Of a stretch of 64,000 nt of DNA, positions 6,138-51,272 are shown piece by piece. The DNA is from Deltaproteobacteria bacterium (GTDB lineage Bacteria > Desulfobacterota > Dissulfuribacteria > Dissulfuribacterales > QOAL01), in NCBI GenBank assembly GCA_024275145.1, contig JAJRZR010000093.1, forward strand, positions 7,228 through 71,227. Reading direction: 5' to 3'. Every line of letters starts with the position of its first letter. Position 1 is the first letter of the stretch. Made by a program: the position numbers and the translations under genes. Under the pieces are notes generated by a model, which was not told the DNA's origin, searched no databases, and worked only from the letters and a program-made list of their open reading frames with translations.

Positions 6138-6189
6138 GCCGTTTTCTCCATGCCCGTAACAGGCCCGCCTGGGCAGGCTGTTTATATCC

Positions 6190-8354: not shown

Positions 8355-8359
8355 TTGAT

Positions 8360-13681: not shown

Positions 13682-13955
13682 ACCTGGGCCATAAATTCAT
13701 GTTGACCGGAATGGTTTCGAATGGTAACAATTTAAAGTTAGACTTTATTCACTATAGAGATACGGCTCGGTATGAGCAATGTCTCCATGTTGGCGAGGCG
13801 CCGACATATGTCCAGGCGCATAAAGGCTTGGTGTGAAGATATCCCCTTGGGACGGTACCTTCAGGTAGGGGATAGCTGTATAAACAGGCAGGCTAGAAGG
13901 TCTGCCTGTGGAAAATTCAGCCCGAACAGGGTGTGTAGCAGGGGTATATTACAAC

Positions 13956-20129: not shown

Positions 20130-20361
20130 AAATATAGCCCGGAAGGAGGGGCACTATTTTTGCGCTAAGTTATGTACTTCAGGAGATACGTTCTGTGAGG
20201 TAGATAACGGTCGGAACCAACCAGGTAATTGCATAATTCGGGGCAAGTGGTTAAGAATGGAGTTCAGTTTCATATCCTTGATCCCAGACACTGCAGCAAG
20301 GGAAAACATCGGCCTAAAACGGCGGTTAGAATATATCAGCAAGAGAAAGGACCATCCCATC

Positions 20362-21432: not shown

Positions 21433-21575
21433 TTCCCTGATATGGCGCTTGCCAAGAGGATGCCAGCTGTTGCAGCCTGCCCCGTTTTCTCCCTTCTTAA
21501 GGAATTGAACTCTTATGCCGAAGAATGTTGATGAAGGCCAGGGGAATACTTCACTTCTTATTACGGGAAGATTCC

Positions 21576-22727
21576 ATGATAAAACGAAAAAGAGGACCGA
21601 TATCCTATCGGGATGGTAGGGTGCTCATTGTCGAGGACGATCTGCTCCAAAGAGAGCTTTTGTCACAGGTGGTGAGGACGTACGGGTGTGAAGCGATTGC
21701 TGCTGAGGAAGGGGCAGAGGCCTTGGCAATGGTGCGGCAGGATGAGCCTGACGTGGTCCTGACCGACGTCGTTATGCCCGGCATGAGCGGCCTGGAACTC
21801 TGCCGTGCCATAAAGGACGATATTTCTATAGCCCACATCCCGGTGATAATTGTTACCAGTCTTTCGGAAAAACAGCATATGTTGGAAGGTATAGAGGCAG
21901 GGGCCGATGAATTCCTCACAAAACCTATAGACCCCCAGGAAGTGGGACTCAGGATAGGAAACGCCATATCTGCAAAACGTCTGTTCGAGGATCTTCGCAA
22001 GAATTATTGCCGGTTAAAGGAACTGGAACAGGCAAGGGATAGCCTGACGCATATGATGGTGCACGATATGCGCTCCATCTTGATGGGTATTTCAGGCAAC
22101 GCAGAGCTGCTCAAGATGCGGACACAAGACCGGCTGAGGCCCGACGAGGTCAGGTTCCTGGAGAATATCCTTACCAATATCTCTTCCATGGTGGAGATGG
22201 TTGGAACCGTTCTGGATGTAAGCCGCATGGAAAATGGCAAGATGCCCATTAATATTACCCGGACGGACATCAGGGATGTTGTAAACAAGGCCATTGACCT
22301 CCTTGGGGTAAGACACTGCAATGTCGCGATGAAGGTGGAATTACCTGATACACCGGCTTACGCAGAGTGTGATCCGGACGTGATTTGCAGGGTGCTCACA
22401 AACCTGATCGCCAATGCCTTGAAGTTTACCAGGGGGCTTGAATATCCTGAAATTTCCATATTTGTAGTGCACGATAAAGATACAGTAAGGGTCAGCGTAT
22501 CGGATAACGGCCCGGGTATCCCAGCGGAAGAGCACCGCACGATTTTCCAGAAATACGGCCAGGGGGTCACAGCCATGGATCGTGGGGGGCGGCATTCATC
22601 GGGTATGGGCCTTTATTTTTGTATGCTCGCAATAGAGGCACATGGTGGGACTATAGGTGTGGAGAGCAGCCCTGGTCAAGGGGCCACCTTCCATTTCGAT
22701 TTAAAGGCTAGTGGCGATATGTCCTGA
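21576..22727 (+). CDS. Hybrid response-regulator receiver / histidine kinase
   Basis: N-terminal receiver (VLIVEDD...VVLTDVVMPGMSGLEL...VTSL...KP), then H-box MVHDMRSIL and an HATPase_c domain (DNGPGIP...GMGLYFC...GGTIGVESSPGQGATF). Confidence 0.9.
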   Translation: MIKRKRGPISYRDGRVLIVEDDLLQRELLSQVVRTYGCEAIAAEEGAEALAMVRQDEPDVVLTDVVMPGMSGLELCRAIKDDISIAHIPVIIVTSLSEKQHMLEGIEAGADEFLTKPIDPQEVGLRIGNAISAKRLFEDLRKNYCRLKELEQARDSLTHMMVHDMRSILMGISGNAELLKMRTQDRLRPDEVRFLENILTNISSMVEMVGTVLDVSRMENGKMPINITRTDIRDVVNKAIDLLGVRHCNVAMKVELPDTPAYAECDPDVICRVLTNLIANALKFTRGLEYPEISIFVVHDKDTVRVSVSDNGPGIPAEEHRTIFQKYGQGVTAMDRGGRHSSGMGLYFCMLAIEAHGGTIGVESSPGQGATFHFDLKASGDMS

Positions 22728-22934
22728 TTCGGGCCTTACATGGCCCAAAGGCTTCCTGCCTAGTCCAAAATATACATTATAGTATAAAAAGGCCCTCATA
22801 TCCACATGTGCTGGTGTACATGTGCCTTTATCCAGCATCTTGTTTTTGAACAAAACGGTTCCAGGGGGCTTAAATTGATCATGTAACATGTCCTCTTTGG
22901 GATTTTCTTCAGGGGCCCGGGATGAGACAGAAGA

Positions 22935-25900
22935 ATGTGGATTAGGCGGATCAGTTTCAAAATTTTAGCAGTTGTCCTGATCTTTCTAGCCGGCGGGATA
23001 TTCATGGCGCAGTGGGCACTCGAGGGGGCCCGGGCCAGGAACCAGAAATATTGGGCACAACGTATCCGGCAGGAGGCAAGGGGCACGGACCTTGAGATCA
23101 CTATCCTTAAGACCTACGCGGACATGTTGTCCGATGATCCTTATGTGCATCACATACTGGCAGATCCTGAAACGGCCAGTGGAGAGGATCGGTGGATGGC
23201 CAGGAGACATTTGGGCGCAGTGGCCGTACGCCCTGGGATTCTTGGTGCCTTCCTTCTGGATGCCGAGGGAACCTGTGTGCTTTCGACCCAGAAGGGTCTG
23301 CCAGGGAAGAATTATGCCTTTCGTCCCTATTTCAAAGGGGCCATGTTCAGTGGACAGGGCTTTTATACCTCCGTGGGGGTCAGCTCTGATTCACTGGATT
23401 TCTATTTTGCCTCCAGGGTTTCTACTGGGGGTAAAGCCATTGGGGTAGCGGTGATCAAGATTGCAAGGGATTTCTTTTCCATTGTGCGGCAAGGACAATC
23501 CGCGACCGGCGACCGCACTCTCCACCTATCCAGGCCATTTAATGCCCTTGCAACAGAGCAGGGCATAATAATCGGTTGCGGCCCAGGTCTCTACGTACTT
23601 GGTCCATTGTCCAGATCCATATACCAACCCGGTTACTTGGACAGGCATCCTTCTGGTATGAATCCACGATCCGTGTCGGAATTGTATCCTAGCGATAGAA
23701 GCAATTACGGCATTTCTGCAAAGGGAGGTCAGGGTGTCAAACAGGCAGTAGGGTCCCTTGGTTTTCCGGCAGGTACGTGGAGACGCCTCAAGACACGGGG
23801 GGCGATAAGGATCAATAATCCGAAGTATGGAGACTTCTATCTGGAGATAGTACCGCTTGATGTAAACGGTCTGGTTTTATTCCATTGTATGCCAGCCGAC
23901 ATGGCGGCTTCTTTCATTCCTGCTTCGGAACCCGTTTACGCCATCATCGCCGCATTTATGGTAACCCTGGTAGCCCTTATCGTTCTCTATCAACTGCTCA
24001 TATCGAAACACGCAGCCCTTCGGGTGGCCAACAGCCGTTTGAAGGATGAGCATCAGGAATACAGCAGGCTCTTTTCCCGGTACAAGACACTCATAGATGC
24101 TACCAGTGAAGGATTCTGGATAGTCGATGCGGAACAGCTCCAGATACTAGAGGTAAACGACGCAATTTGCCGGATGCTGGACTATGACAGACAGGCACTG
24201 ATAGGTAAGACCCCTTTTGATCTGGTGGATGACAAGAATCGCAAGATTCTGATGGAACAGGCCTCACAAAAGGGCAAGGATCGTTGTCTGTTCGAACTAG
24301 AGCTGCTGACCAGGGACGGGCAGGTGCGCTACGTTAGAATATCCTCCATCAAGATCACTGGGCAGGTAGGGGAAGGTGATCTTCGTTTTGCCTTCATTAC
24401 CGATCTTACCGATTATGTAAGGTCCCAGCAACAAATAAGGAAGCTTTCGGTGGCCGTGGAGCAGAGCGCAAATACCGTGGTCATTACGAATACCCAGGGA
24501 GAAATAGAATATGTAAACCCGAAGTTCTGCCAGGTTACAGGCTACAGCAAGGATGAGATCATGGGTAAAAATCCCAGGCTGCTCAAGTCAGGTCTCCAGA
24601 GCAGGGGATTTTATCAGGATCTCTGGAACACCATATCCTCTGGTGCGGTATGGAAGGGCGAATTTTGTAACAAGAAGAAGAACGGAGATGTTTTTTGGGA
24701 AAGCGCCACTATTTCGCCAGTCAGGGATGAACAGGGCAATATTTCCCATTACATAGCGATCAAAGAGGATATAACCGACAAGATAAGATTGAGGACCAGG
24801 CTTGAGGAGACGGCGGCAGAGCTTGATCTTATTATTGAAAATGCCGGGATAGGCATAGCGTACATAAAAAACAGGAGGCTTGTTCGATTAAACAGCGCAA
24901 TGGCCAGACTCTATGGAGCAAGGCCCGATGAATTGATAGGTAAAGACACCTCTTTTATCTATGCCTCCATGGATGACTATGAAAACTATGGCAAGGAAAT
25001 ATATTCCAGGTTGGCAAACGGGGAGACCGTAGTCAAAGAACTTCCATTCAACAGGAAGGACGGAAGCACAATATGGGGCCGGCTTACCGGTAAGGCATTG
25101 GATCCGGGTGATCCTGATGGGGGATCCATATGGATGTTGGAGGATATCACCAGAAGGAAGGCCATGGAGGCTGCCATGGCAAGGAAGGATGCCATCCTCG
25201 AGGCAGTGAGCATGACCTCGAGCCTCCTGCTTACAGGTATCGATTGGAGAGCAGCTGCAGGGCAATTTTTATCTGCCCTCGGCGGTGCCTCGGCGGTAAC
25301 CCGTGCATCAATTCTGAAGCTAGAGAAGAACAAGACTGGTGCCACGGATATAAACGGCGTAGCCCACTGGGCCAGTCCCAATGTTGTATCCAGTTTTTCG
25401 GATTTCCTTGATGCCTTGTCGGACAAAACAGTCCTTTTGCAATCTGTGTTGGGCAGGTTAAAGGACGGAGAGATAGAGGTCATGTATCTCCTTCTTGATT
25501 CTCCCGCAGGTATACAAGAGGAAGGACACCCTGGCGGCATCATGTCTTCTGTCTGTTTATGTCCCATAATTCTTGAAGGCAGTCTTTGGGGGATGCTGGC
25601 CTTTGAGAATTTTGGAAACGAAAGAACATGGTCGGAGGCAGAGCTTGAGGCCTTTAAAGTGGCAGCAAATGTAATATCCGCTGCAATACAGAGGGAATAT
25701 TTTGAATTGGAGAAGAGGCTTGAGGAATTCAAGTTTACTACCATCATATCAAATGCAAACAGCATAATTCTCAGGGTGGATGCGTCCGGTCGGGTTTTGT
25801 TTTTGAACAGGTTTGGTCTAGAGTTCTTTGGTTATACGGAAGACGATATCCGTGGGGAAGAGGCCATCGGCACCATTTTTCCAGAGGGGGAAGGTGTTGC

Positions 25901-28112
25901 AAGCGCCCTGAGGCGTCTCATTGAAGATCCCCATCCCCCTTCAGGAGACTACTATTCCAGCGAGGGCGAAAGTATCCGTGGGGATGGTCGCCATGTATGG
26001 ATATCATGGACCAATACCCCGATTACCGATTCGAATGGAAGGCTTAAAGAAGTACTTTCCATCGGGCACGATCTTACCCGTCAAAAAGAGATAGAAAAAA
26101 GGCTGAGAGAGGCCAGCGAGGCCAAGAGCCGGTTTGTTGCAAACATGAGCCATGAAATCCGTACCCCGCTCAATGCAGTCATAGGTATGGCGGACCTGGT
26201 TATGAAGACAAGGCTTGATCCTGTACAAAAGCAGTATGTTTCAGCGATCCAAGCCGGTGCCAATACCTTGTTGTCTCTTATAAACAACATACTTGATTTC
26301 TCAAAGATCGAAGCCGGTCAGATGGTACTGGAGCGTAAGGTTTTCGAACTTGACAAGGTCATGGAGGAATCAGTGCGGATAATTGCCGCCAAAGCACATG
26401 CAAAGGATCTTGAAATCCTGTGTCACTGGGAGCCGGATGTTCCTCTTAAGCTCGTAGGGGACGAACTCAGGTTGTCCCAGATCTTCTTGAATCTTATGGG
26501 GAATTCGGTGAAGTTTACCGAAGTGGGCGATGTTGTACTTGATTGTAGCCTGGAAGGTATAGAAGATGATATTGCAATCCTCCACTTCAGGGTAATAGAT
26601 ACGGGGATAGGTATTCCAGAGGGTGAGCAGAAAAATATCTTCGAACCCTTTACCCAGGCCGATACCTCTGTAACCCGGCGGTTTGGTGGTACAGGGCTTG
26701 GGCTTTCGTTGTGTATGAGGCTTGCAAAACTCATGGATGGAGGCCTATGGGTAGAGAGTACAGAGGGCATGGGTACTACGTTCCACCTGCGGCTGAGATT
26801 GCCGAGGGCACAAGATATATCGGACATGTCGTTGCCCGATGGCATTGCTCCCATGGATTGGCCCGTCCTGGTGGTTTCACCCAATCATTGGCTTAGGCTC
26901 GTTATCAAGGATCTGCTTGTTCCCTATGGTTTTCCTGTGACTGGTATGGGTGATCCTGCTGTCATTGCCAATTTTCTTTCCGGCGATCTGAAAGGATGCA
27001 GGGCTAGGCTGATATTCATAGATGAGGTCGTTACGGAGACCGCTTCAGTGGTATACGCTGACCAGGGAGGGCGATCTCCCCATCTTATCCTCCTTGACAA
27101 GGCATTTGCAGGAGGGCCTGACAGCACTGCAGGAGGTGATTCAGGATTTATCCAATGTCTGCACAAGCCGGTTTTCAAGGCTCAATTGTTGAACATCGTC
27201 AGCCAGATAATACTAGGAAAGCCATTTCTTGAACCTGGCATAGATCTCCGGCTGGATATTGCAGGTAGAGCCTCGGGCAGGTTGTCTGCCAGGGTGTTGT
27301 TGGTAGAGGATAACGAGCTTAACCAGCAGCTTGCTATGGCCATTTTATCTAACGCCGGTCATGAGTTTAGCCTTGCAGCTGATGGCCTGGATGCGCTTGA
27401 ACAGCTTTCGAAAGAGACCTTTGATCTGGTCCTGATGGATGTCCAGATGCCAAGGATGGATGGAATACTTGCGACCAGGGTGATCAGGGCCGTTGAGGCA
27501 GGAAGGGAACCAGCGGGTGCAGGGCAGCTTTCCCGCAAACTTCTCGATGGCTTGAAGAGGAACCTGGCAGGGAAGCACATCCCTATAATAGCCATGACTG
27601 CCCATGCCTTTCTGGAAGACCGGGACAACTGCATGGCCGCCGGGATGGATGATTATCTTACGAAACCCTTCAAACCCAAAGAGATAAACCAGGTCATTGC
27701 CTGGTCTCTGAATCAGGGGGAATCACACACAGGGAAGCACCTGCCGGATCAGTCACCTTATAAAGAGGCCGGGAAGGCCCGGGCTGTACGACAAGAACTT
27801 GATATGGAGGCAGTAAAGAGATATCTCGTAGAGACCTTTGGCCTGACCCCAGAGGAAATGGAAGGGATGCTTGAGACCATTTCCCTCTCCCTGGAGCCGG
27901 TTCTTGAAAAGGGTAAAGACGCTGCGATATCCGGGCGTCATCTGGAGCTTTCCGAGGCGGCACATTCCATTAAGGGGATACTTTTAAACCTTGGCCTTGA
28001 AGAGTTGGCTGAAAAGGCGTTGCAAATCGAGGTAAATAGTAGGAAGCAGGCTGCGTTCCCATACCAACAGGCGTTTTTCGAACTAGAGGACCGTCTCAGG
28101 CCATTGCTTTAG
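22935..28112 (+). CDS. Giant (1725-aa) hybrid sensor histidine kinase: periplasmic sensor, TM, several PAS/GAF modules, HisKA/HATPase, degenerate receiver, true receiver, HPt
   Basis: N-terminal TM, then a roughly 300-aa extracytoplasmic region, then a second TM. PAS-like repeats are present (e.g. GKNPRLLKSG...WKGEFCNKKKNGDVFW). H-box SHEIRTPLN has its His codon at 26151-26153. Receiver Asp in LVLMDVQMP is at 27438-27440. HPt motif AAHSIKG has its His at 27963-27965. Confidence 0.9.
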   Translation: MWIRRISFKILAVVLIFLAGGIFMAQWALEGARARNQKYWAQRIRQEARGTDLEITILKTYADMLSDDPYVHHILADPETASGEDRWMARRHLGAVAVRPGILGAFLLDAEGTCVLSTQKGLPGKNYAFRPYFKGAMFSGQGFYTSVGVSSDSLDFYFASRVSTGGKAIGVAVIKIARDFFSIVRQGQSATGDRTLHLSRPFNALATEQGIIIGCGPGLYVLGPLSRSIYQPGYLDRHPSGMNPRSVSELYPSDRSNYGISAKGGQGVKQAVGSLGFPAGTWRRLKTRGAIRINNPKYGDFYLEIVPLDVNGLVLFHCMPADMAASFIPASEPVYAIIAAFMVTLVALIVLYQLLISKHAALRVANSRLKDEHQEYSRLFSRYKTLIDATSEGFWIVDAEQLQILEVNDAICRMLDYDRQALIGKTPFDLVDDKNRKILMEQASQKGKDRCLFELELLTRDGQVRYVRISSIKITGQVGEGDLRFAFITDLTDYVRSQQQIRKLSVAVEQSANTVVITNTQGEIEYVNPKFCQVTGYSKDEIMGKNPRLLKSGLQSRGFYQDLWNTISSGAVWKGEFCNKKKNGDVFWESATISPVRDEQGNISHYIAIKEDITDKIRLRTRLEETAAELDLIIENAGIGIAYIKNRRLVRLNSAMARLYGARPDELIGKDTSFIYASMDDYENYGKEIYSRLANGETVVKELPFNRKDGSTIWGRLTGKALDPGDPDGGSIWMLEDITRRKAMEAAMARKDAILEAVSMTSSLLLTGIDWRAAAGQFLSALGGASAVTRASILKLEKNKTGATDINGVAHWASPNVVSSFSDFLDALSDKTVLLQSVLGRLKDGEIEVMYLLLDSPAGIQEEGHPGGIMSSVCLCPIILEGSLWGMLAFENFGNERTWSEAELEAFKVAANVISAAIQREYFELEKRLEEFKFTTIISNANSIILRVDASGRVLFLNRFGLEFFGYTEDDIRGEEAIGTIFPEGEGVASALRRLIEDPHPPSGDYYSSEGESIRGDGRHVWISWTNTPITDSNGRLKEVLSIGHDLTRQKEIEKRLREASEAKSRFVANMSHEIRTPLNAVIGMADLVMKTRLDPVQKQYVSAIQAGANTLLSLINNILDFSKIEAGQMVLERKVFELDKVMEESVRIIAAKAHAKDLEILCHWEPDVPLKLVGDELRLSQIFLNLMGNSVKFTEVGDVVLDCSLEGIEDDIAILHFRVIDTGIGIPEGEQKNIFEPFTQADTSVTRRFGGTGLGLSLCMRLAKLMDGGLWVESTEGMGTTFHLRLRLPRAQDISDMSLPDGIAPMDWPVLVVSPNHWLRLVIKDLLVPYGFPVTGMGDPAVIANFLSGDLKGCRARLIFIDEVVTETASVVYADQGGRSPHLILLDKAFAGGPDSTAGGDSGFIQCLHKPVFKAQLLNIVSQIILGKPFLEPGIDLRLDIAGRASGRLSARVLLVEDNELNQQLAMAILSNAGHEFSLAADGLDALEQLSKETFDLVLMDVQMPRMDGILATRVIRAVEAGREPAGAGQLSRKLLDGLKRNLAGKHIPIIAMTAHAFLEDRDNCMAAGMDDYLTKPFKPKEINQVIAWSLNQGESHTGKHLPDQSPYKEAGKARAVRQELDMEAVKRYLVETFGLTPEEMEGMLETISLSLEPVLEKGKDAAISGRHLELSEAAHSIKGILLNLGLEELAEKALQIEVNSRKQAAFPYQQAFFELEDRLRPLL

Positions 28113-28161: not shown

Positions 28162-29322
28162 TTATTGGGATTGGCCGATCGTCTCGACCCTCTCGTTTGA
28201 TTTGAGAATTGCACGACGGTTGTCAGTCCTTGCCGCTTCACGGTAACCTTCTACAAGTTCATCTATGAGTTCCTGAACGGATTGTATCTTGTCGATGCGC
28301 CAGACGTTTTCCCCGCAAAAGACAAAGCCTGCGTCCAGATTGCCCCTTTGGGCATTTACAAGCGCCATGCTTATACAATATGGGGTATTCGGATAATGGC
28401 AGGGTTTAAGACACTTATAGCCACACTTCTTGGGTATCTTCTGCCCGGATTTGGCCTTTTCTGTAAATTTACCCTTTAATGCACGCCCGGGCATTCCGAC
28501 AGGGCTTTGGATTATATCTACATCCTCTTTTTTGGCGTCCAGATATGCCTGCTTGAATTTATCAGAGGCATCGCATTCATGAGTGGCAACAAACCTGGTA
28601 CCCATCTGGACCCCTGCGGCCCCCAGCTTCATTATGTTATAGATATCCTCACCCGTGTATATACCTCCTGCGGCTATTACGGGTATCTTCTGTTGATACT
28701 TTGCTTCGAAAGGCCGAACCGATTTCAATACCTCGATTATAAGGTTGGAGATCTGCTTTTCGGGAAGGTCAAGCTCTTCAGCCTTGAACCCCAGATGCCC
28801 CCCGGCCTTGGGGCCTTCTACCACAATGGCATCGGGAAGGCGATTGAAGTGCTCTTTCCATCTCTTACACAGTATTTGTGCGGCCCTGCCGGACGAGACT
28901 ATAGGTACCAGTTTCGTATCGGCACCCTTTGGTAACATACCAGGCAGCTTTAGTGGAAGGCCAGCACCGCTTATGATAAGATCGGCCCCTGCTTCAGCGG
29001 CAATTTTGACCAGGACCTCGTAGTCTTGCAGGGCAACCATAATGTTGACCCCAATAATGCCGTTAGGTGCAGCCTCTTTCGCCTCCTTTATTTGCTTCGC
29101 CAATGCCCTGTAGGTAGCGCCTTGAGGATCTTTGTAAAAATCTTTTTCGTTGATGCCTATCAGTACAGATGCCAATACACCTATCCCGCCAGCCTTTGCC
29201 ACTGCTGAGGCCAGACCTGACATGGAGATACCAACTCCCATTCCGCCTTGGATGATTGGAAGTCTGGACTCGATGTCACCGATAGTAAGGGATGGAGGAT
29301 CATAAATATTTTTCTGAATCAT
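28162..29322 (-). CDS. Nitronate monooxygenase / FabK-like FMN oxidoreductase family protein with Cys-rich C-terminal extension
   Basis: IQGGMGVGIS near the N-terminus, TIM-barrel FMN-binding pattern (AAGGIYTGEDI...VQMGTRF), and a C-terminal CGYKCLKPCHYPNTPYC segment. Only 56 nt downstream of the flxA-like gene with no hairpin between them. Confidence 0.78.
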   Translation of the reverse strand: MIQKNIYDPPSLTIGDIESRLPIIQGGMGVGISMSGLASAVAKAGGIGVLASVLIGINEKDFYKDPQGATYRALAKQIKEAKEAAPNGIIGVNIMVALQDYEVLVKIAAEAGADLIISGAGLPLKLPGMLPKGADTKLVPIVSSGRAAQILCKRWKEHFNRLPDAIVVEGPKAGGHLGFKAEELDLPEKQISNLIIEVLKSVRPFEAKYQQKIPVIAAGGIYTGEDIYNIMKLGAAGVQMGTRFVATHECDASDKFKQAYLDAKKEDVDIIQSPVGMPGRALKGKFTEKAKSGQKIPKKCGYKCLKPCHYPNTPYCISMALVNAQRGNLDAGFVFCGENVWRIDKIQSVQELIDELVEGYREAARTDNRRAILKSNERVETIGQSQ

Positions 29323-29378
29323 GGACGCCTTTTAGTCTTCTTGGGAATCCACGTCAAGTGATGTAGTGGTAAATTTTT

Positions 29379-30230
29379 TTAAAATTCTACTGGTAGCTTT
29401 TGTACCTCAGCCCTGGTAAATACCGGGCCGTCCTTGCAGACGTATACCGGTCCCACGTTGCAGTGACCACATACGCCAAGGCCACACTTCATCCGGTTTT
29501 CAAGGGAGAGATATACCTGGTCGTCTGTCCAGCCGATCTTTTCCAGTGGCGGCATGGTAAACTTTATCATGATGGGGGGACCACATATGAGGGCGGCGGA
29601 GTTCTCCGGTGATGGGGCAACCTGCCCGGCAATGGTGGGCACGAAGCCCACCAAGCCGTCCCATCCAGGGGCATCCTGGTCGATAGTGACAAACATTTCC
29701 ATGTCATCCCGTTGGGACCATGCCTTAAGCTCTTCTTTGTACAATAGCATCCCCGGCGTTCTGGCACCATATATCACGGTGATCTTACCGTAATCCTGTC
29801 TATGGGCCAGCATATATATCAGGGTAGCCCTGAGAGTGGTGAAGGCGAATCCACCCGCGATTATGACGATATTCTTTCCTTTAAGCCCCTCGTCTACCGG
29901 GAAACCGTTACCAAGGGGACCCCTTATACCGATTCTTGCCCCGACATCCATCTTGTGCAGAGCCGTTGTAACCACCCCCGCCCTGTTGACCGTAAAGAGA
30001 AGGTGGCCCTTTTCCGTTGGAGAAGATGCAATACCTATGGGTATCTCACCTTTGCCTGCCAGTGACAGCATGGCAAACTGTCCTGGTATGTGGTTCCAAC
30101 TGGCCATATCTTCCGGCTTTTCAAGGATGATCCTGTAGGTCTTGAGGTTCTGGTCCTCTGTTTCTATGGTAATAGCATCTATCCTTCCAGGGTACGGGAG
30201 ATAGGGGTTTTTTTGATCTGTATTTTTCAT
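29379..30230 (-). CDS. FlxA-like FAD/NAD(P)-binding oxidoreductase with C-terminal [2Fe-2S] motif (AsrB / sulfhydrogenase-gamma family)
   Basis: From ATG 30230 the product is about 283 aa. Ferredoxin-reductase-type fold (RPISIAS-like PIGIASSP, GPLGNGF, IIAGGFAF) and C-terminal CGLGVCGHCNVG. The track extends it to 30326, inside the upstream gene. Confidence 0.75.
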   Translation of the reverse strand: MKNTDQKNPYLPYPGRIDAITIETEDQNLKTYRIILEKPEDMASWNHIPGQFAMLSLAGKGEIPIGIASSPTEKGHLLFTVNRAGVVTTALHKMDVGARIGIRGPLGNGFPVDEGLKGKNIVIIAGGFAFTTLRATLIYMLAHRQDYGKITVIYGARTPGMLLYKEELKAWSQRDDMEMFVTIDQDAPGWDGLVGFVPTIAGQVAPSPENSAALICGPPIMIKFTMPPLEKIGWTDDQVYLSLENRMKCGLGVCGHCNVGPVYVCKDGPVFTRAEVQKLPVEF

Positions 30231-30238
30231 GGCATGTT

Positions 30239-31267
30239 TTATTGAATCGAAAGGAGGTCCCTCATTACCTCCCTGATGTCTATATTTACCGGGCATTCCC
30301 TGATACAGCGTCCACAGCCTACACATGAAAGCGGTCCGAAACGTTCGGGAAAGTATTTCAGCTTGTGCATGAAGCGGTTTCTCACCCGTTGGATCTTTTG
30401 CCCCCGGGGGTTGTGGCCGGATGCATGTTGTGTAAATAGCGGGAACATGCAGGAATCCCAGTATCTTATCCTCCTGCCCTTGCCCTTTACGGTTTCATCC
30501 TGGATGTCAAAGCAGTAACAGGTTGGGCACAGGAATGTACAGGCACCGCAATTGATACAGGAATCGGCAAGTTTTTGCCAGAAGGTGGCATTGTAGAGGT
30601 CCATCAGTGCCTTTTTTCTAAGGATTTCCGCCGGGCTTCCTGCAGGCCCTGTCCCTTTTTGTGCCTGTTTCCGTAAGGCCTCAAGTTGTTTCCTTTCTTC
30701 TGGTGATGCCTCCTTGGTATCATGTAGATGTCCCAGCAGTTCTTTTCCCTTCTCGCTCAGGACTGCGGCCAGGTAACCTCCTTCGATCTTGGTCATGGCA
30801 ATATCCATTCCCTCGGTACCCATAGGGGAACCTCCGGTCCATGAACAGAAACAGGTGCTGCATGGCCGTTCGCATGTAAAGCCTACTATCAGGGTGGTAT
30901 CCTTCCTGACCTTGAAATAGGGATCGTTGGCAAAGGGAAGTGAATTCAGCATGACACTCCTGGCATCGCACGGTCTGACCCCCAGTATGATCCTTTCCCG
31001 GCCTTTCCCCATGGCGGGTCTGGGTACATAGGCATCTCGGTCTCCTGACCTGGTTGAATACTCCAGCAAGGTCTCTGGTTGCGGGAAGAAGAAGACCTTT
31101 ATGGATGCCCTAGGTACTCCCTCGGCAGGTTCATTGAATGCCAAAGGTTCGATGCGTTGCCAGCCAACCTTGCCGTTTCCTTCCACAGGAGAAAACAGGT
31201 CCCTGGTTTCGTTCCACCTGGTCAGCAAGGTTTTCAGGTCGGAATTGTCAAGTTTTAGTATCTTCAC
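30239..31267 (-). CDS. FlxB-like iron-sulfur protein (AsrA / sulfhydrogenase-beta family)
   Basis: 342 aa. Cys clusters CSTCFC, CINCGACTFLCPTCYC and CVGCGRCIRECP. The start overlaps the upstream stop in ATGA. Confidence 0.72.
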   Translation of the reverse strand: MKILKLDNSDLKTLLTRWNETRDLFSPVEGNGKVGWQRIEPLAFNEPAEGVPRASIKVFFFPQPETLLEYSTRSGDRDAYVPRPAMGKGRERIILGVRPCDARSVMLNSLPFANDPYFKVRKDTTLIVGFTCERPCSTCFCSWTGGSPMGTEGMDIAMTKIEGGYLAAVLSEKGKELLGHLHDTKEASPEERKQLEALRKQAQKGTGPAGSPAEILRKKALMDLYNATFWQKLADSCINCGACTFLCPTCYCFDIQDETVKGKGRRIRYWDSCMFPLFTQHASGHNPRGQKIQRVRNRFMHKLKYFPERFGPLSCVGCGRCIRECPVNIDIREVMRDLLSIQ

Positions 31268-32322
31268 TTTTCGCTTCCCCCTTGTGTACCCTGTTTTTTC
31301 GATCCGGCGATGATGAATGTATCTGGATCTTCCGGCTGGTAGGTGGTAAGGGGAAGGGGAGAATTGAGATCAAGCCCTGGTTCCGATGCAAAAAGCTCCA
31401 GGCAGTCCTTCTGGAGTTTGCGGGTAAAGAGCCTCATCTTTATCCCCATGGGGCAGGCACTTTCGCACGCGCCGCAGTCGGTACAGCGGCCAGCACAATG
31501 GTATGCCCTGAGTATGTGAAAGGTTGCCGTATCGGTTTTATCTATGCTTTTCCCTACCCACTGGGGATGGGAATCGTCAACAAAGCAGGTGGGACAGTAG
31601 CAAAGCGGGCAGGCGTTTCTGCATGCGTAGCAGCGGATGCAGGTAGCAATCTCTTCCTGGAACCATGCCCACCGGGAACCTGCGTCCATACGTTCGATCT
31701 CCTCTATCCGGGCAAACGGCTCATGGACACGCCTTTCCGGAACGGTGGGGCCGATCTTTTTGTCAAGGATTACAGGCGATGGATGGACGCATGTAAGGCA
31801 GTTGTCACGAAGTACCTCTTGCCTTGCCGTTTCCATCTTGAAGTCCCTTCCAGAGATGATCACTCTTTCATCCGTCTCTTCAAGGGACTGGATCTCCCTA
31901 CCCCCTGCCAGGACCTCCAGCTTCCTTCTGTCGATCATGCCATGACTGTCCACTCCCAGGATGACCAGCCTCTCCCTGTCCATCTGATTTTCCTGGATCT
32001 GGATTACCATGTTCCTGGACCAGCATCCGGTGGCGATTACCCCTACCCTGGGTAATGGTCCCTCAGGAGGCGGTTCCCCAGGGCGCCTGGGTGGCTCAAG
32101 GGATTTCAGCAGGCCTGGCAGGTAATTGGCCAGGTTCATCACGCATAGGCCGTTCCATACCAGTTTGTCCGTTTCCTCTGGGGTTCTCGCGACGAAGGGC
32201 CTGGTAACAGTAGGAAGGCTTCCCTTGACAAAGCCAAGGAAGGCAGCGACCTTGCCGGACTCCAGGAGATCCTTTGCCTCCCTTCTGATTGCTTCAGTAG
32301 TTTGTGAAAAGAGAGTTTCCAT
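31264..32322 (-). CDS. FlxC-like iron-sulfur protein
   Basis: 352 aa. Cys clusters CIRCYACRNACPLCYCPTC and CTDCGACESACP. Size and position match the second Fe-S subunit of Flx-type modules. Confidence 0.65.
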   Translation of the reverse strand: METLFSQTTEAIRREAKDLLESGKVAAFLGFVKGSLPTVTRPFVARTPEETDKLVWNGLCVMNLANYLPGLLKSLEPPRRPGEPPPEGPLPRVGVIATGCWSRNMVIQIQENQMDRERLVILGVDSHGMIDRRKLEVLAGGREIQSLEETDERVIISGRDFKMETARQEVLRDNCLTCVHPSPVILDKKIGPTVPERRVHEPFARIEEIERMDAGSRWAWFQEEIATCIRCYACRNACPLCYCPTCFVDDSHPQWVGKSIDKTDTATFHILRAYHCAGRCTDCGACESACPMGIKMRLFTRKLQKDCLELFASEPGLDLNSPLPLTTYQPEDPDTFIIAGSKKQGTQGGSEK

Positions 32323-32328
32323 GGGCAG

Positions 32329-32772
32329 TTATCCGATTTCTTTGACCAGGTGCCTTGCCGGGCCCACTGTCTTGATGCGGGTGGTTACCTCCCTGACCAG
32401 TTCAGCAAATTGTTCACCTTCCGAGGCGGATATCCAGGAAAAATTGATCCTTTCAGGTTCTATGCCTATGAATTCCAACAGGTTCTTGAGCAGGGCAAAC
32501 CGGCGCCTGGCATATAGGTTGCCACTTATGTAGTGGCAGTCACCAGGATGGCACCCAGAGACCAGTATCCCATCTGCCCCTGCCTTAAGCGCATCAAGGA
32601 TCATGTTGGCGCTTACTCTCCCCGAGCACGGAACCCTTATGATGCGGATATTCGGGGGATATTGAAAACGGCTTACTCCAGCCAGATCCGCCCCGGCATA
32701 GCTGCACCAGTTACAGAGGAAGGCGATTATCTTGGGCTCCCATTTTTGATCTTTATCAGATGCCGAATCCAT
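32329..32772 (-). CDS. flxD: MvhD-like (FlxD) [2Fe-2S] electron-transfer subunit
   Basis: 147 aa. IIAFLCNWCSYAGADLAG...IRVPCSGRV...VSGCHPGDCHY is the methyl-viologen-reducing hydrogenase delta-subunit signature. SD AAGGGGG lies 6 nt upstream. Confidence 0.87.
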   Translation of the reverse strand: MDSASDKDQKWEPKIIAFLCNWCSYAGADLAGVSRFQYPPNIRIIRVPCSGRVSANMILDALKAGADGILVSGCHPGDCHYISGNLYARRRFALLKNLLEFIGIEPERINFSWISASEGEQFAELVREVTTRIKTVGPARHLVKEIG

Positions 32773-32787
32773 GTATGGCCCCCTTGG

Positions 32788-35700
32788 CTAGCAGATTTCC
32801 ATGGCTGCCTCGATAGCCGCCATTATCTGTTCGTTCCCGATATTTTTCAGTGTCACCGCATCAGAGCGGCATCCGGCTACACATGCACCGCATCCCTTGC
32901 ACATGGCGGTGTCTACCGTGGCGAGCCTGGAGTCCTCATCAAGGTGTATGGCATTATAGGCGCAGACCATGGTACATACACCGCAGCCTACACATTTTCC
33001 ATGGTCTACCACAGCGGTGATGCTCTCGGCGGGTATGGCGTCCTGCGCCAGTATTGTGGATGCCCTGGCGGCAGCGGCCTTGGCCTGGGCGATGGTTTCG
33101 TCCATTGGCTTCGGATAGTGACAAAGACCTGCCATGAATATCCCGTCTGTGGCAAAATCCACAGGCCTTAGCTTCATGTGGGCCTCGAGGAAGAAGCGAT
33201 CTGATGTCATGGAGCATTTAAAGGCCCTAGATACAACGTCTGCATCAACCTTAGGCCTTACTGCTGTTGCAAGGACGAGCATGTCAGGATGCAGCCTGAC
33301 CGGCCGATCCAGGATGGGGTCTTTTGCCTCTACCTGGATCTTGCCCTGTTCATCCCAGACCTTGGGGATGTTGTCAAGGTCATATCTTATGAAGACTATG
33401 CCCTTTTCCCTTGCCCTTTGGTACAACCGCTCCTTTTCCCCATAGGTTCTTATGTCCCTGTAGAGCATGAATATTTCCATGTCAGGGTTCAGCTCCTTGA
33501 GGTGTAGCGCCTGGTCGATGGCATGGGTACAGCAGACCCTTGAGCAATAGGGTTTCTCAGATACCCTGGAACCCGCGCATAGTATGAATACGGTCTGTCC
33601 CTTTTCTTTGAGTGCCGGGTCTTCCTTGATGAATCTCTTGTCCAGTTCCAGGAGTACGTGTACCTCTGGATGCTTGCCGTAGAGGTAGTTCCATCTGCCT
33701 TCCCTTGGTTTGTGGGAGCCTGCCCCTATGGCAATGATTGCTGCGCCATGGGAGACCTTGCTACCGTCCGATAGCAGGGTCTTGAATTGTCCCACGGAAC
33801 CCTCGACACGCTCTACGCTGGTCCCTAGGCGTAGGTCAATATGGGAGTGGCCTTCCACTTGACGGCATAGTCCCTTGAGATATTCCTGTACCAGGTCGCC
33901 CTGCCATGTACGGTAGAATTTACGCGCGTGGCCACCAAGCCGATCCTTCCTTTCTACTAGGACTACCGGAATCCCCTGATCTGCAATGGAAAGTGCCGCT
34001 GTCATGCCGGCAACGCCTGCCCCAAGCACCAGTGCCCTTTTTACTACTGACACGGTGTTGTAGGCCAGTGCCTCGTCCTGTCGCACCTTTGCCACCGCCA
34101 TCCTGACGAGGTCCTTAGCCTTTTGTGTTGCCTCGTCTGGGAATTTTTGATGTACCCAGGAATCCTGGTCCCTGATATTTGCCATCTCGAACAAGAACTT
34201 GTTGAGGCCGGCATCCCTCAGGGTCTCCTGGAACAGAGGCTCGTGCGTTCTTGGGGTACACGAGGCTACTACCACCCGGTTGAGCCCTTCCCTTTTTATG
34301 ATCTCTGCCATCTGGTTAATGGTGTCTTGGGAACAGGTAAACAGGTTGTTCTGGGCGAATACCACGCCGGGGAGCGTTCGTGCATAATCGGTGACCGCTG
34401 CTACGTCGACCACACTTGCAATATTTATCCCGCATGAGCATACAAATACCCCTATCCTTGGTGGTTCGGCCCACACGTTTCTTTCATCAGGGTATTCCTT
34501 TTTCCTAGTCTCGCTCCATCTTGACGGTGCAAGGACCCTGCTGGCTTCCAGTGCAGAGGCACTCGCCTCCATGACGGACTGGGGGATATCCTTTGGCTCG
34601 GATACTGCTCCACAGACGCAGACCCCCGGCCTGTTGGTTGATACCGGCCTGAAGGCACTGGTTGCCACGAAATTATTGGGGTCAAGTTCTACACCAAGAC
34701 GCCGTGCAAGTTCAGCGGCCTGCCTGTCCATCTCAAGGCCCACTGAGAGCACGACCAGATCGAATTCTTCCTGGTTGATGAGTCCGTCATCACCTACGTA
34801 TCTGAGTATCAGGTTGTCATCGTGGCCTGCTGGCAGGACACTGTGTATCCGGCAGCGATGGAAGTTTACGCCCTCGGCCCTGGCCCTGTCGTAGTAGGCC
34901 TCGAATTCTTTGCCGTGTGTCCTCATGTCCATGAAGAAGATGCTGGTGGCCAGGTCTGGCCCTTGGGCGTGCTCCCTGGCAATTACGGCCTGTTTTATCG
35001 CATACATGCAGCATACCGAGGAACAGTAACCATGGCAGGCACGGTTGATGTCCCTTGAGCCAACACATTGTAGCCAGGCTATTCGCCTAGGTTCCTTGTG
35101 ATCAGAGGGACGCTCCATATGTCCAAGGCATGGTCCCGAAGGACTAAGCAGACGTTCGAACTCCATGGCTGTGACGACGTTGGGAAGCCTGCCATAGCCG
35201 GTGAAATCCAGGATGGAAGGGTCGAATGGTGAAAAGCCCAATGCCAGTATTACAGAACCCACCTCGATTTGTATCTCCCGGGGTTGGTCATCGAAATTTA
35301 TGGCTCCGGAGGGGCAGACCTTCTGGCACATGCCACACCTTCCTGGCTTCTTGAGCCAGATGCATTGATCAGGATCTATGGCATATTTCAGGGGTACGGC
35401 CTGGGGATATTTGAGATAAATGGCCTTTCTCTTCCCAAGCCCCAGATCGAATTCGTTCGGGACTTTCTTGGGGCACTTTTCTGCACAGGTGCCGCAGGCG
35501 ATACATTTTGCAGGATCAACGTATCTGGGATTCTGCCGTACGGTGGCGGTAAACGCACCTTCTTCACCTTCAAGGGCCAGGACCTCTGAAAGGGTCATGA
35601 GGTTGATATTGAGGTGCCGACCGCATTCCACCAATTTGGGGGAGAGTATGCAGGCGGAGCAGTCATTTGTTGGGAATGTCTTGTCTAACTGGGACATCCG

Positions 35701-35838
35701 GCCGCCTATGGCCGAACTTTTTTCGATCAGGTGGACATAAAATCCACTGTCTGCCATATCAAGGGCGGCTTGAACACCTGCAATACCGCCTCCCACCACC
35801 ATTACGGAGCCCTTGGGCCTATCGGAAGGATTGCTCAT
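32788..35838 (-). CDS. hdrA: Large (about 1016-aa) HdrA-like flavoprotein with two FAD-binding modules and multiple Fe-S clusters
   Basis: Two dinucleotide-binding motifs (VMVVGGGIAGVQAALDMADSG and ALVLGAGVAGMTAALSIADQG). Two C-x-G-S-R regions (LQCVGSRD, ILCAGSRV). Ferredoxin motifs CIACGTCAEKCP, CGMCQKVCP, CVGCGVCTMVCA and CKGCGACVAGC. ATG 35838 overlaps the upstream TGA as ATGA. Confidence 0.9.
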   Translation of the reverse strand: MSNPSDRPKGSVMVVGGGIAGVQAALDMADSGFYVHLIEKSSAIGGRMSQLDKTFPTNDCSACILSPKLVECGRHLNINLMTLSEVLALEGEEGAFTATVRQNPRYVDPAKCIACGTCAEKCPKKVPNEFDLGLGKRKAIYLKYPQAVPLKYAIDPDQCIWLKKPGRCGMCQKVCPSGAINFDDQPREIQIEVGSVILALGFSPFDPSILDFTGYGRLPNVVTAMEFERLLSPSGPCLGHMERPSDHKEPRRIAWLQCVGSRDINRACHGYCSSVCCMYAIKQAVIAREHAQGPDLATSIFFMDMRTHGKEFEAYYDRARAEGVNFHRCRIHSVLPAGHDDNLILRYVGDDGLINQEEFDLVVLSVGLEMDRQAAELARRLGVELDPNNFVATSAFRPVSTNRPGVCVCGAVSEPKDIPQSVMEASASALEASRVLAPSRWSETRKKEYPDERNVWAEPPRIGVFVCSCGINIASVVDVAAVTDYARTLPGVVFAQNNLFTCSQDTINQMAEIIKREGLNRVVVASCTPRTHEPLFQETLRDAGLNKFLFEMANIRDQDSWVHQKFPDEATQKAKDLVRMAVAKVRQDEALAYNTVSVVKRALVLGAGVAGMTAALSIADQGIPVVLVERKDRLGGHARKFYRTWQGDLVQEYLKGLCRQVEGHSHIDLRLGTSVERVEGSVGQFKTLLSDGSKVSHGAAIIAIGAGSHKPREGRWNYLYGKHPEVHVLLELDKRFIKEDPALKEKGQTVFILCAGSRVSEKPYCSRVCCTHAIDQALHLKELNPDMEIFMLYRDIRTYGEKERLYQRAREKGIVFIRYDLDNIPKVWDEQGKIQVEAKDPILDRPVRLHPDMLVLATAVRPKVDADVVSRAFKCSMTSDRFFLEAHMKLRPVDFATDGIFMAGLCHYPKPMDETIAQAKAAAARASTILAQDAIPAESITAVVDHGKCVGCGVCTMVCAYNAIHLDEDSRLATVDTAMCKGCGACVAGCRSDAVTLKNIGNEQIMAAIEAAMEIC

Positions 35839-37067
35839 GGCTTTACCATTGCCTTTTCTATCCAGTTCCACAGGTGGGTAGTCTTCCACTTGCCACCATA
35901 GTGGTCACATATATCGAGTACCTGGGTATGGCAGTTGTGGCAGGGGGTTATCACTACGTCAGCGCCAGTGGAGGCCAATTGGTCGAATTTTATCTTGCCG
36001 AATTTCCTCCTGTTTTTTACGAAGCCGGCCTGAAGTGCCCCGCCTCCTCCACCGCAGCAATAGTTATTCGATTTGTTGGGCCAGACATCGATGAAGTTTT
36101 CTGCACCTACAACCTTCTTTATTACGAATCTCAGATCCTCGGCTACCTGGTCCCCTAGCCCCTGGCGTACCAGTTTGCATGGATCCTGTACGGTAAATTT
36201 CACTCCCTCGGTATTCCAGGATGGATCGACCACCAGTTTCCCCTCACGTATCCACTGGGCATAGAGAGTGATGATGCTTATGAATTCGAAGTTGTGGGGT
36301 ATCTTGAACCTTCGCAACCCCTCCAGGGTCGCGTAGAACATGTGGCCTCACTCGGTATTTATGTAGTATTTACAACCCAGTGCATCCACGGTCTCTGCCT
36401 GCATCCGTACCGTATATTCCCAGTCGTCCGGGTCCCCGGTAAACAGGCAGTAATTGGCTCCGTCCCACCACTTGGACGAGTAAGTCCAGTCTATGCCGAC
36501 CCTGTGCAGGATCTTCCATAGGGGAACCATCTCTTCTGGTTCCACAGTGGGCTCCTTGGCGTTTTGGTTCAGGTAGAACATTGCCCCCTTCTTATCGATT
36601 GGCGCTTCGAGATCCGACCATTCTGGTTCGTTCTTCCTGACCTCGGCAAGGACATCGCCAACCACCCATACGAAATCCTCGTTTGGGATCCCCGTGCTGT
36701 TCGATTTTTTCTGAAGATCACATGATCGTTGCAGGTTGGGGGGCCTTTGTTCCTTGGGGCGCATTCCCCTTATCTCATAGACTATTCTTCCAACGTCTAT
36801 GCCCATTGGACAGGCGTGCTTGCATCTTTGGCACATGGTGCAGGAATAGATCCAGTTGGTGCTCAATACTTCTTCATCCTGCCCAAGGACGAGGAGCCTC
36901 AGGAATTTTCTGGGATCAAGGCCTTCCAGGCCGGTGGCAGGGCATCCGCTGGCACAAAGTCCGCAGGTGAGGCAGTAATCGATGTGGGCATCGGGAAAGG
37001 CGGCCTGAATCTGTTCCTTTACCCTGGTTTTAAGGGACGATAGATCTATTGGCTCATAGGGTGCCAT
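35835..37067 (-). CDS. HdrD-like (fused HdrC+HdrB type) Fe-S/CCG-domain protein, read through one in-frame UGA (probable selenocysteine)
   Basis: The track ORFs 36348..37079 and 35835..36341 are in the same frame and separated only by TGA (36350-36348): ...YYINTE-[UGA]-GHMFYATLEG.... The N-terminal part has CLTCGLCASGCP and CTMCQRCKHACP. The C-terminal part has NYCCGGGGG and PCHNCH. ATG 37067 is preceded by GAGG. Confidence 0.7.
36313..36333 (-). promoter_or_regulatory. SECIS-like hairpin 14 nt downstream of the UGA
   Basis: On the minus strand, CGCGACCC (36333-36326), loop UGGAG (36325-36321), GGGUUGCG (36320-36313). This gives 8 bp including one G-U. Three more pairs are possible beyond a 1x1 mismatch. 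The apical loop starts 25 nt after the U of UGA. Confidence 0.5.
36348..36350 (-). other. In-frame UGA, candidate selenocysteine codon
   Basis: Minus-strand reading: TAC TAC ATA AAT ACC GAG TGA GGC CAC ATG TTC TAC. Coding-like sequence in the same frame lies on both sides. Confidence 0.6.
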
Positions 37068-37246
37068 GGCGTACCTCAACGAGAGTAGGACAGGGTTAAG
37101 ATCAAATTACCATAATTTCTCTACTGCTTTTGCCATAGTGTGTCAAGTATAGAAGGGGGCATTCCCCATCTACTGACCTCGGGTAACAGGTTGGTATATA
37201 GGGTACGTCCTTGACCTGCTACCAGCTGCTCCGTATAGTCTCGCAT

Positions 37247-47799: not shown

Positions 47800-47872
47800 A
47801 CATGGGGCTCCTGATCCCAGGATTATATTTTGTAATCATCATGGGCCTGGACATGTCAAGGAGAAGAACAAG

Positions 47873-51265: not shown

Positions 51266-51272
51266 GGAGAAT

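Follow-up and report, generated by a model that had tools for sequence, protein, structure and literature searches.

Does the cluster of hdr and flx genes in a 64-kb stretch of DNA from a Deltaproteobacteria bacterium (assembly GCA_024275145.1, contig JAJRZR010000093.1) encode an unusual electron-transfer complex, and is the flavoenzyme gene that trails the cluster a part of it? In sulfate reducers, sulfur disproportionators and syntrophs, one of the main ways of keeping the NAD(P)H, ferredoxin and thiol/disulfide pools in balance is believed to run through Hdr/Flx complexes; to our knowledge, experimental support exists only for the Desulfovibrio version with HdrABC. The stretch that was analysed, hereafter the window, provides the numbering for all positions below. 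The cluster consists of seven tightly packed open reading frames (ORFs) on the minus strand (28162-37067; all features of the operon lie on this strand), the translations of which give strong family matches in Pfam and NCBIfam. We consider it rather likely that the first six genes encode one soluble and self-contained, NAD(P)H-linked Hdr/Flx oxidoreductase of the bifurcating/confurcating kind, and that the seventh, FabX-like gene is a fatty-acid gene that joined the operon as its last cistron and contributes no subunit. This reading starts from what could be observed directly, namely, gene content, cofactor motifs, the fused-dimer layout of HdrA, a selenocysteine (Sec) codon and the conservation of the operon as a unit.

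Organization of the operon and the Flx subunits

In the direction of transcription the genes follow one another as hdrD, hdrA, mvhD, flxC, flxB, flxA and the FabX-like gene. The stop of hdrD and the start of hdrA overlap as ATGA at 35838-35835, the stop of flxC and the GTG start of flxB overlap as GTGA at 31267-31264, and the remaining gaps within the core measure, in order, 15, 6 and 8 nt. The first-pass annotation of this DNA had described minus-strand genes in the same order and at the same coordinates, gaps of 6-15 nt and four small subunits of the Flx type, all of which was borne out by ORFs at these positions with strong domain matches. Two details need amending. What had been counted as a seven-gene hdr/flx module plus a flavoenzyme is made up of six hdr/flx genes and one gene of the nitronate monooxygenase (NMO) family, seven in all, and only the first of the two overlaps is the ATGA that had been given for both.

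All four small subunits contain the expected Flx cofactor domains. The MvhD/FlxD-like [2Fe-2S] adaptor (32329-32772; 147 aa) matches Pfam FlpD over its full length (E = 5e-57) and, in NCBIfam, also the VhuD and HdrA2 C-terminal models; it represents the short canonical form. The FlxC-like iron-sulfur protein (31264-32322; 352 aa) gives weak Fer4 matches and has two four-cysteine [4Fe-4S] motifs, CxxCxxCxxxCPLCYCPTC and a second one, the Cys columns of which are conserved in the alignment. The FlxB-like iron-sulfur protein (30239-31267; 342 aa) matches Fer4_22 (E = 1e-35) and, with E-values between 1e-37 and 1e-40, the ShyB (sulfhydrogenase beta), HydB and AsrA models. The FlxA-like subunit (29379-30230; 283 aa) has sites for FAD and NAD(P) and a PyrK-type 2Fe-2S cluster; it matches NAD_binding_1, FAD_binding_6 and DHODB_Fe-S_bind, and its E-values against the hydrogenase gamma, HydG and AsrB models range from 1e-50 to 1e-67. 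The start of flxA is ambiguous, 30230 or an upstream ATG at 30326; the former is favoured because homologues are 280-288 aa long.

Distribution of the six-gene core

Scanning one genome per GTDB species with the FlxC alignment gave at least 591 relatives, and synteny was assessed by tblastn on the best 80 of them. All of these 80 come from Desulfobacterota, and the order HdrA>MvhD>FlxC>FlxB>FlxA is found in every one of their loci long enough to judge. In the lineages nearest to the window, HdrD is found upstream of the core; in the Syntrophobacteraceae/Desulfacinum type, its place is downstream of flxA. The six-gene unit is intact in the fetched loci L001, L003/L004, L007-L009, L011-L016, L018, L020, L090 and L094, and its flanks vary. 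The neighbourhoods of HdrD homologues gave the same result: the six-gene unit is present in every multi-gene context examined (L001, L003/L004, L007, L008 and L009), and the downstream genes differ among these loci. In L001, the HdrD of which is 73% identical, the RNase R/LigA/EF-P flank is the same as in the window. When the flanking ORFs of 13 six-gene cores were clustered in search of a partner (dsrC, etf, ferredoxin), none recurred beyond close relatives, which suggests that the external partners of the core are encoded elsewhere.

In Desulfovibrio vulgaris, FlxABCD-HdrABC (DVU2399-2404) has been proposed to perform NADH-dependent bifurcation to ferredoxin and DsrC (Ramos et al. 2015, as related in PMC5947623 and PMC6470260). 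Compared by description, the two systems share the NAD(P)H/FAD/[2Fe-2S] subunit FlxA, the Fe-S subunits FlxB and FlxC, the MvhD-like FlxD, the HdrA flavoprotein and a thiol/disulfide subunit with CCG domains. They differ in gene order, which is flxA-B-C-D-hdrA-B-C in D. vulgaris and hdrD-hdrA-mvhD-flxC-flxB-flxA here. Furthermore, D. vulgaris has separate HdrB and HdrC and an HdrA of single length, whereas the window encodes a 410-aa HdrD selenoprotein fusion and a 1016-aa double HdrA, and the alcohol dehydrogenase gene found next to the D. vulgaris cluster is not adjacent here. The use of HdrD in place of HdrBC was already pointed out for the Hdr/Flox cluster of Syntrophobacter fumaroxidans, Sfum_1969-1977 (PMC5947623). 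Loci of this Syntrophobacteraceae type have HdrD beside flx, the same order from HdrA to FlxA and a Sec codon in HdrD, but their HdrD is only 38-40% identical and is encoded downstream of flxA, whereas here it is the first gene.

The inverted order and the replacement of HdrB and HdrC, which the first-pass annotation had listed as departures from the Desulfovibrio arrangement, are therefore real but not peculiar to this locus: the order is universal among the judged loci, and both are traits of the family. The gene-neighbourhood search that it had called for thus returned a widespread six-gene core, and the seven-gene order including the FabX-like gene in five genomes only. Judged by its sequence, the locus belongs to a known, widespread and biochemically uncharacterised variant of Hdr/Flx that is frequent among sulfur-cycling anaerobes, and its core is not unusual.

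Several of the related loci have features of their own. In L009, flxB and flxA of an otherwise intact operon are separated by two inserted genes (13626-14649), one of which encodes an AbiEii-family toxin. In L003, a TusA-MvhD-HdrA-like-HTH-HdrC-HdrB-DsrE cluster of sulfur-relay/sHdr-like type lies directly upstream of the six-gene core (3219-9569), a hint that the substrate in this organism may be a sulfur carrier. L007, from Desulfotignum phosphitoxidans, has a pair of genes for the small and large subunits of a NiFeSe hydrogenase divergently upstream of the core (6830-9487), and a gene for a 1484-aa HdrL-like protein downstream of it (18715-21284). Finally, in L028 (5100-9554) and similar Desulfobacteraceae loci, a larger HdrA (ORF of at least 1316 aa), with an extra upstream HdrA-like segment, precedes MvhD-FlxCBA, and HdrD is not adjacent; these loci look like a further subtype of the Hdr/Flx family.

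HdrD is a selenoprotein

The first gene of the operon encodes an HdrD-like protein of 410 aa (35835-37067), a fusion of HdrC and HdrB that matches Pfam Fer4_8, Fer4_17 and CCG. It has two CX2CX2CX3C motifs for cubane [4Fe-4S] clusters, followed by the CCG domain. The C-terminal CCG motif is complete (C297, C337, C338, C376 and C379), whereas the N-terminal site is degenerate (C207...E-U240-G) and keeps just C207 and U240. The best NCBIfam models are HmcF (185 bits), TmcB (170 bits) and DsrK (129 bits), and HdrC was matched in the PDB.

Residue 240 corresponds to an in-frame UGA (36348-36350; motif NTE-U-GH), which in full-length HdrD homologues of 410-430 aa aligns to a near-invariant Cys within the motif NTE-C-GH. 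TGA occupies this codon in 13 fetched loci, namely, L090 (HdrD 96% identical), seven loci at 76-83% identity and five of the Syntrophobacteraceae/Desulfacinum type at 38-40%, and the remaining loci have TGC or TGT. Starting 17 nt after the UGA, there is a hairpin resembling a Sec insertion sequence (SECIS), with a 9-bp stem (36313-36333), which was obtained as the RNAalifold consensus of eight Sec-encoding sequences, that is, the window and the seven relatives at 76-83%. At two of its base pairs, both partners have changed in a compensatory manner; in lineages that encode Cys, the hairpin is degraded. Taken alone, the hairpin of the window had a single-sequence z-score that was not significant against shuffles.

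If the TGA were a true stop, hdrD would be split or a pseudogene, its ORFs of 243 aa and 168 aa being separate or non-functional. Gene callers do break hdrD into two ORFs in the window, L090 and L094, and neither tRNA-Sec nor sel genes were found in the 64 kb of the window, where the only tRNA-Ser genes are two in number. However, a decayed gene is difficult to reconcile with a TGA that recurs at the identical codon across 38-96% identity, with Cys at this codon in the other loci, with a frame that continues in conserved sequence, or with the conserved downstream hairpin and its compensatory changes. We consider a true stop extremely improbable, and the pseudogene reading was rejected because of the recurrent TGA/Cys position and the conserved hairpin. 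The same three observations (one codon in 13 loci, Cys elsewhere, a covarying hairpin) indicate that the TGA encodes a genuine selenocysteine, in agreement with the first-pass annotation, which had described a UGA-containing fused HdrD replacing HdrB and HdrC. A Sec-containing HdrD has been reported before, in the form of hdrD4 of Desulfobacterium autotrophicum (PMC2702500).

HdrD is not the only subunit affected. Over loci L010-L089, and in the numbering of the window proteins, 40 loci have an in-frame TGA for the second Cys of the DCxxC motif in HdrA (residue 63) and 60 loci have one for a conserved Cys of MvhD (residue 74); in the window, both residues are Cys. The codon alignments thus indicate that the family is a multi-site selenoprotein complex with Sec usage differing by lineage, and the exchange of Sec and Cys at HdrD 240, HdrA 63 and MvhD 74 points to thiol/selenol chemistry.

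HdrA is a fused, permuted dimer

The second gene encodes an HdrA-like flavoprotein of double length (32788-35838; 1016 aa; HdrA2 model, 966 bits), which comparison with PDB structures of HdrA resolves into two HdrA units, fused and permuted. The thioredoxin reductase (TrxR)-like domain with the inserted ferredoxin domain is matched by residues 12-382 (PDB HdrA 154-516), the N-terminal domain of HdrA by residues 451-609 (3-161), and the C-terminal part with its ferredoxin domain by residues 762-1013 (404-653); a second flavin domain (TrxR2) is formed by residues 600-929. The first half retains DCSAC (C60, C63) and the FAD-proximal Lys (K310), whereas in the second half the CxxC is missing and the Lys is replaced by Glu. 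Both the inserted and the C-terminal ferredoxin domains are of the 2x[4Fe-4S] type, and the Cys pattern of the whole protein fits seven [4Fe-4S] clusters.

In the methanogen systems MvhADG-HdrABC and HdrA2B2C2 (PDB 5ODC and 8RVU; PMC5296606), HdrA aligns to both halves, with an overall E of about 1e-199, and the DCxxC motif, the FAD-proximal Lys, the ferredoxin domains and the use of MvhD as an adaptor are shared. In those systems, the donor is H2 or F420H2 and HdrA is single, whereas here the donor would be NAD(P)H via Flx, HdrA is a fused duplicate and HdrBC are fused. The methanogen substrate CoM-S-S-CoB is not expected here, the host being a bacterium.

The layout also fits what has been described for the class II benzoyl-CoA reductase of Geobacter metallireducens. 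According to its cryo-EM structure, BamE consists of two fused HdrA units that hold a bifurcating FAD, a non-bifurcating FAD and the clusters E1-E7, and BamD is an HdrBC-fusion subunit with a degenerate distal non-cubane cluster, from which the high-potential electron passes to the electron-transferring flavoprotein (ETF) (bioRxiv 10.64898/2026.04.10.717634). The HdrA fusion, which the first-pass annotation had overlooked, together with HdrD fits this description. The likeness to BamDEF, i.e. a fused permuted HdrA with seven clusters, an HdrBC-fusion subunit and an MvhD-type adaptor, was drawn from the published description; a PDB sequence search with HdrA and HdrD matched only methanogen HdrA and HdrC. 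There are also clear differences. The Bam system has the tungsten catalytic subunits BamBC and receives its input through BamGHI, whereas here neither is encoded nearby and the input is Flx, similar to sulfhydrogenase beta/gamma. BamF is more than 100 aa longer than MvhD of the window and has Sec19 as well as an extension of the wHTH (winged helix-turn-helix) type; MvhD has Cys at the equivalent site, so that Sec is placed in HdrD here and in BamF in the benzoyl-CoA reductase. No AOR or NuoEFG-like genes were found in the 64-kb window. Lacking BamBC and BamGHI nearby, and with a short MvhD, the locus does not appear to encode a benzoyl-CoA reductase. HdrD, HdrA and MvhD might still form the electron module for a low-potential reductase, of the BamB type or another (e.g. 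aromatic-ring), with its catalytic genes elsewhere and Flx replacing BamGHI, as the BamD- and BamE-like architecture would allow, and related clusters do pair the core with other partners, such as the NiFeSe hydrogenase of L007 or HdrL-like proteins. However, genes for AOR/BamB, BamC or BamGHI are found neither in the window nor beside the cores of the relatives, and MvhD is of the short canonical rather than the long BamF form, making this possibility very unlikely.

The trailing FabX-like gene

The last gene of the operon (28162-29322; 386 aa) encodes a protein of the NMO family (Pfam NMO, E = 7e-57), as recognized in the first-pass annotation. Its label as FabK-like did not hold, because the score against the FabK model TIGR03151, 134.9 bits, is far below the equivalog cut-off of 453.1, and FabK identity was rejected. 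Instead, the protein matches the structures of Helicobacter pylori FabX (7E1Q and 9LT5) over its full length with E = 4e-75 and 43% identity. The two share the NMO TIM barrel, the catalytic His (His176, equivalent to His182 in FabX) and four [4Fe-4S] Cys at nearly the same residue numbers (C300, C304, C308 and C316 here, C300, C304, C308 and C320 in FabX). The [4Fe-4S] domain takes the place of the NAD(P)H motif of FabK, as it does in FabX (PMC8626469). On the other hand, the FabX residues in contact with the acyl carrier protein (ACP), R164 and T130, align to His and Leu, and the gene trails the hdr/flx operon rather than standing in a fatty-acid context. For FabX, oxygen is the sole known electron acceptor, yet most of its homologues occur in anaerobes (PMC8626469). 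Since the host is presumably a strict anaerobe, oxygen could not be the acceptor here.

The 56-nt spacer between flxA and the FabX-like gene (29323-29378) contains neither a terminator-like nor a promoter-like match and folds no better than shuffles, in line with the hairpin-free spacer described in the first-pass annotation. That an extra FMN gene trails the operon is also correct, but limited to five genomes of one clade: directly after flxA it was found only in the window, L090 (92% identical), L094 (GCA_054039495.1), and L011 and L018, both from metagenome-assembled genomes. These five genomes are monophyletic in the HdrA+FlxC tree, and the gene is absent from the sister lineage (L001, L010) and from all other six-gene core operons. 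In L094, flxA and the FabX-like gene are 3 nt apart and both flanks differ from those of the window, making the gene a likely member of the operon in this clade. A chance meeting of two blocks, one with RNaseR/LigA/EF-P and hdr/flx, the other with FabX, aminotransferase IV, cytochrome and FolC genes, is made less likely by L094, where the adjacency persists with the flanks changed. In this clade, the FabX-like gene is probably co-transcribed with the hdr/flx operon.

Outside the clade, the gene is found in other company. Across Thermodesulfobacteriota and Nitrospirota, its orthologues show 60-79% identity, and in L091-L093 they occur without hdr/flx. In Thermodesulfatator indicus DSM 15286 (CP002683.1; L092, 4047-10946), the orthologue is part of a cluster of genes for acyl-CoA dehydrogenase (ACAD), EtfB, EtfA, FabX, FabG, two small ORFs, ACP and FabF, and its first 8 nt lie within the end of etfA, which suggests that ETF is a redox partner of FabX-type enzymes in anaerobes. 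In Dissulfurimicrobium and Dissulfuribacter, the FabX-like gene is paired with aminotransferase IV, cytochrome and FolC genes, as beyond it in the window; it is preceded by PNPase and peptidase genes, not hdr/flx, in the former, and in the latter the contig ends on its upstream side. Of 80 FabX-like loci from metagenomes, all more distant, not one carries flx within 7 kb; FabF is close by in three of them, EtfBA-ACAD in one and a divergent HdrD in one, L136 (245-4015). The HdrD gene of this metagenome contig is 57% identical to that of the window and is separated from the FabX-like gene by about 1.4 kb, so that L136 provides a second, independent instance of the two gene types lying near each other.

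Could the FabX-like protein be a dedicated redox partner of the Hdr/Flx complex, with both forming one system in this clade? In one version, the complex may act as a bifurcating enoyl-ACP reductase, with electrons passing from Flx/Hdr through the [4Fe-4S] cluster of FabX to FMN and the high-potential enoyl/acyl-thioester couple driving the reduction of ferredoxin by NAD(P)H; in another, it may provide a strict anaerobe with an oxygen-independent electron sink for FabX-type acyl-ACP dehydrogenation and unsaturated-fatty-acid synthesis. The same-strand position at 56 nt with no terminator found in the spacer, the adjacency kept in five genomes and through the rearrangement in L094, the lack of an NAD(P)H site in an enzyme whose only known acceptor is oxygen although its homologues are mostly anaerobic (PMC8626469), the etfA overlap in T. 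indicus, the docking of ETF on the HdrD-like BamD (bioRxiv 10.64898/2026.04.10.717634) and the HdrD neighbour in L136 all agree with such a partnership. Nevertheless, the five linked genomes form a single clade and hence represent one evolutionary event, the sister lineages L001 and L010 as well as all other core operons do without the gene, and not one of the 80 metagenome loci has flx nearby. Moreover, the pairing with aminotransferase IV is common to Dissulfurimicrobium and Dissulfuribacter, and identity of 60-79% across phyla is what would be expected for a housekeeping enzyme. We therefore regard a dedicated partnership as quite unlikely; a functional tie to the complex is possible but improbable, and it is unsupported outside the clade. 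By the same token, the dedicated terminal substrate that the first-pass annotation had read from the trailing gene is better put as a hypothesis than drawn as a conclusion, as FabX orthologues elsewhere are found in fab/ETF or housekeeping contexts.

Proposed electron flow and its alternatives

By homology, the six-gene complex would take NAD(P)H as donor and ferredoxin and a disulfide as acceptors, and the overall reaction is expected to be reversible; the direction, like the path outlined here, is assigned from relatives. FlxA would accept hydride from NAD(P)H on its FAD and pass single electrons onward via its [2Fe-2S] cluster, and the [4Fe-4S] chains of FlxB and FlxC, together with the [2Fe-2S] cluster of MvhD, would carry them to a bifurcating FAD in the first TrxR-like half of HdrA. 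From this FAD, the low-potential electron would leave via the inserted ferredoxin domain of HdrA to ferredoxin, and the high-potential electron via the two cubane clusters of HdrD to the complete CCG non-cubane cluster and the adjacent Cys207/Sec240 site. The latter would most likely reduce the disulfide or trisulfide of a DsrC-type protein by thiol/selenol exchange. An acceptor of the DsrC type is favoured because HdrD is closest to HmcF, TmcB and DsrK, proposed DsrC-reducing subunits (PMC6470260), and has Sec at a CCG position. This scheme is consistent with the proposed role of FlxABCD-HdrABC as an NADH dehydrogenase/heterodisulfide reductase (PMC5947623, PMC6470260) and with the BamE/BamD structure, in which a fused HdrA bifurcates toward an HdrD-like subunit (bioRxiv 10.64898/2026.04.10.717634).

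Several points weigh against the reading of the locus as a disulfide-reducing Hdr/Flx complex followed by an unrelated fatty-acid gene. The variant with HdrD and double HdrA is known from gene sequences, and its likeness to Desulfovibrio Flx and Geobacter BamD/BamE was drawn from published descriptions. HdrD shares with BamD a degenerate distal CCG site, and BamD binds no heterodisulfide but reduces ETF (bioRxiv 10.64898/2026.04.10.717634). No dsrC, ferredoxin or etf gene is linked to the operon within the 64-kb window. Finally, the FabX-like gene stays adjacent in 5/5 sampled members of its clade, in one of them with a 3-nt gap and rearranged flanks, which argues against a passive neighbour.

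The main rival to a DsrC-type acceptor is a carrier of the ETF type. HdrD would then reduce no disulfide at all and, in the manner of BamD, merely relay the high-potential electron to the quinone pool by way of a soluble carrier, for instance ETF. Such a role would explain why only C207 and U240 are left of the N-terminal CCG site, and it has a precedent in BamD, where the distal cluster is disrupted, the heterodisulfide pocket is blocked and ETF is reduced (bioRxiv 10.64898/2026.04.10.717634); the fused-dimer layout of HdrA is likewise that published for BamE. However, Sec at the CCG position is kept even in distant HdrD, which is hard to explain for a site of pure electron transfer, no etf genes stand beside any six-gene core examined, and the best-scoring HdrD models are HmcF, TmcB and DsrK. 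A BamD-like role is thus unlikely, though worth keeping in view, and reduction of a DsrC-type protein remains our preferred assignment for HdrD.

Upstream region and other features of the window

The operon promoter presumably lies in the intergenic region 37068-37210, upstream of hdrD and divergent from the RNase R gene. This region contains a TTGACA at about 37146-37141, but a consensus scan of the minus strand upstream of hdrD found no full sigma-70 site. A search for Rex-type NADH-sensing operators across the window gave chance-level matches, none of them upstream of hdrD, and an alignment of the upstream regions of five relatives showed conservation just with the near-identical L090 and no common motif.

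The genes flanking the operon are unrelated to it, with RNase R, LigA and EF-P divergent upstream and a PAS hybrid histidine kinase of 1725 aa convergent downstream; the remainder of the window consists of housekeeping genes. The multi-PAS hybrid kinase and a response-regulator/histidine-kinase gene (together 21525-28112, plus strand) separate the FabX-like from the aminotransferase IV gene. Because these two adjoin directly in L011, L018, L091 and L093, the kinase pair looks like an insertion common to the window and L090 only. Elsewhere, a 379-aa ORF (6190-7329, minus strand) combines a YbeY endoribonuclease (residues 31-131) with a full PdxJ (144-375) and represents either a gene fusion or two genes merged by the ORF call. 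Four long ORFs of 401-582 aa have no Pfam match (8360-10108, minus strand; 15342-16937, 46594-47799 and 51231-52658, plus strand), and one 1196-aa protein has repeated Ig-like/DUF1573/ASH domains (47675-51265, plus strand).

Implications for Hdr/Flx complexes

This locus shows, in a clean and compact form, the version of Hdr/Flx that is the more widespread one in Desulfobacterota, of the HdrD type, with double HdrA and dependent on selenium, and the complex would be a sensible choice for purification. The FabX-like tail is of importance only if its speculative link to the complex is true, in which case it would address how FabX chemistry proceeds in anaerobes without oxygen. As for the core itself, its match to the published bifurcating core of class II benzoyl-CoA reductase suggests that the BamDE-type core may be a general-purpose module.

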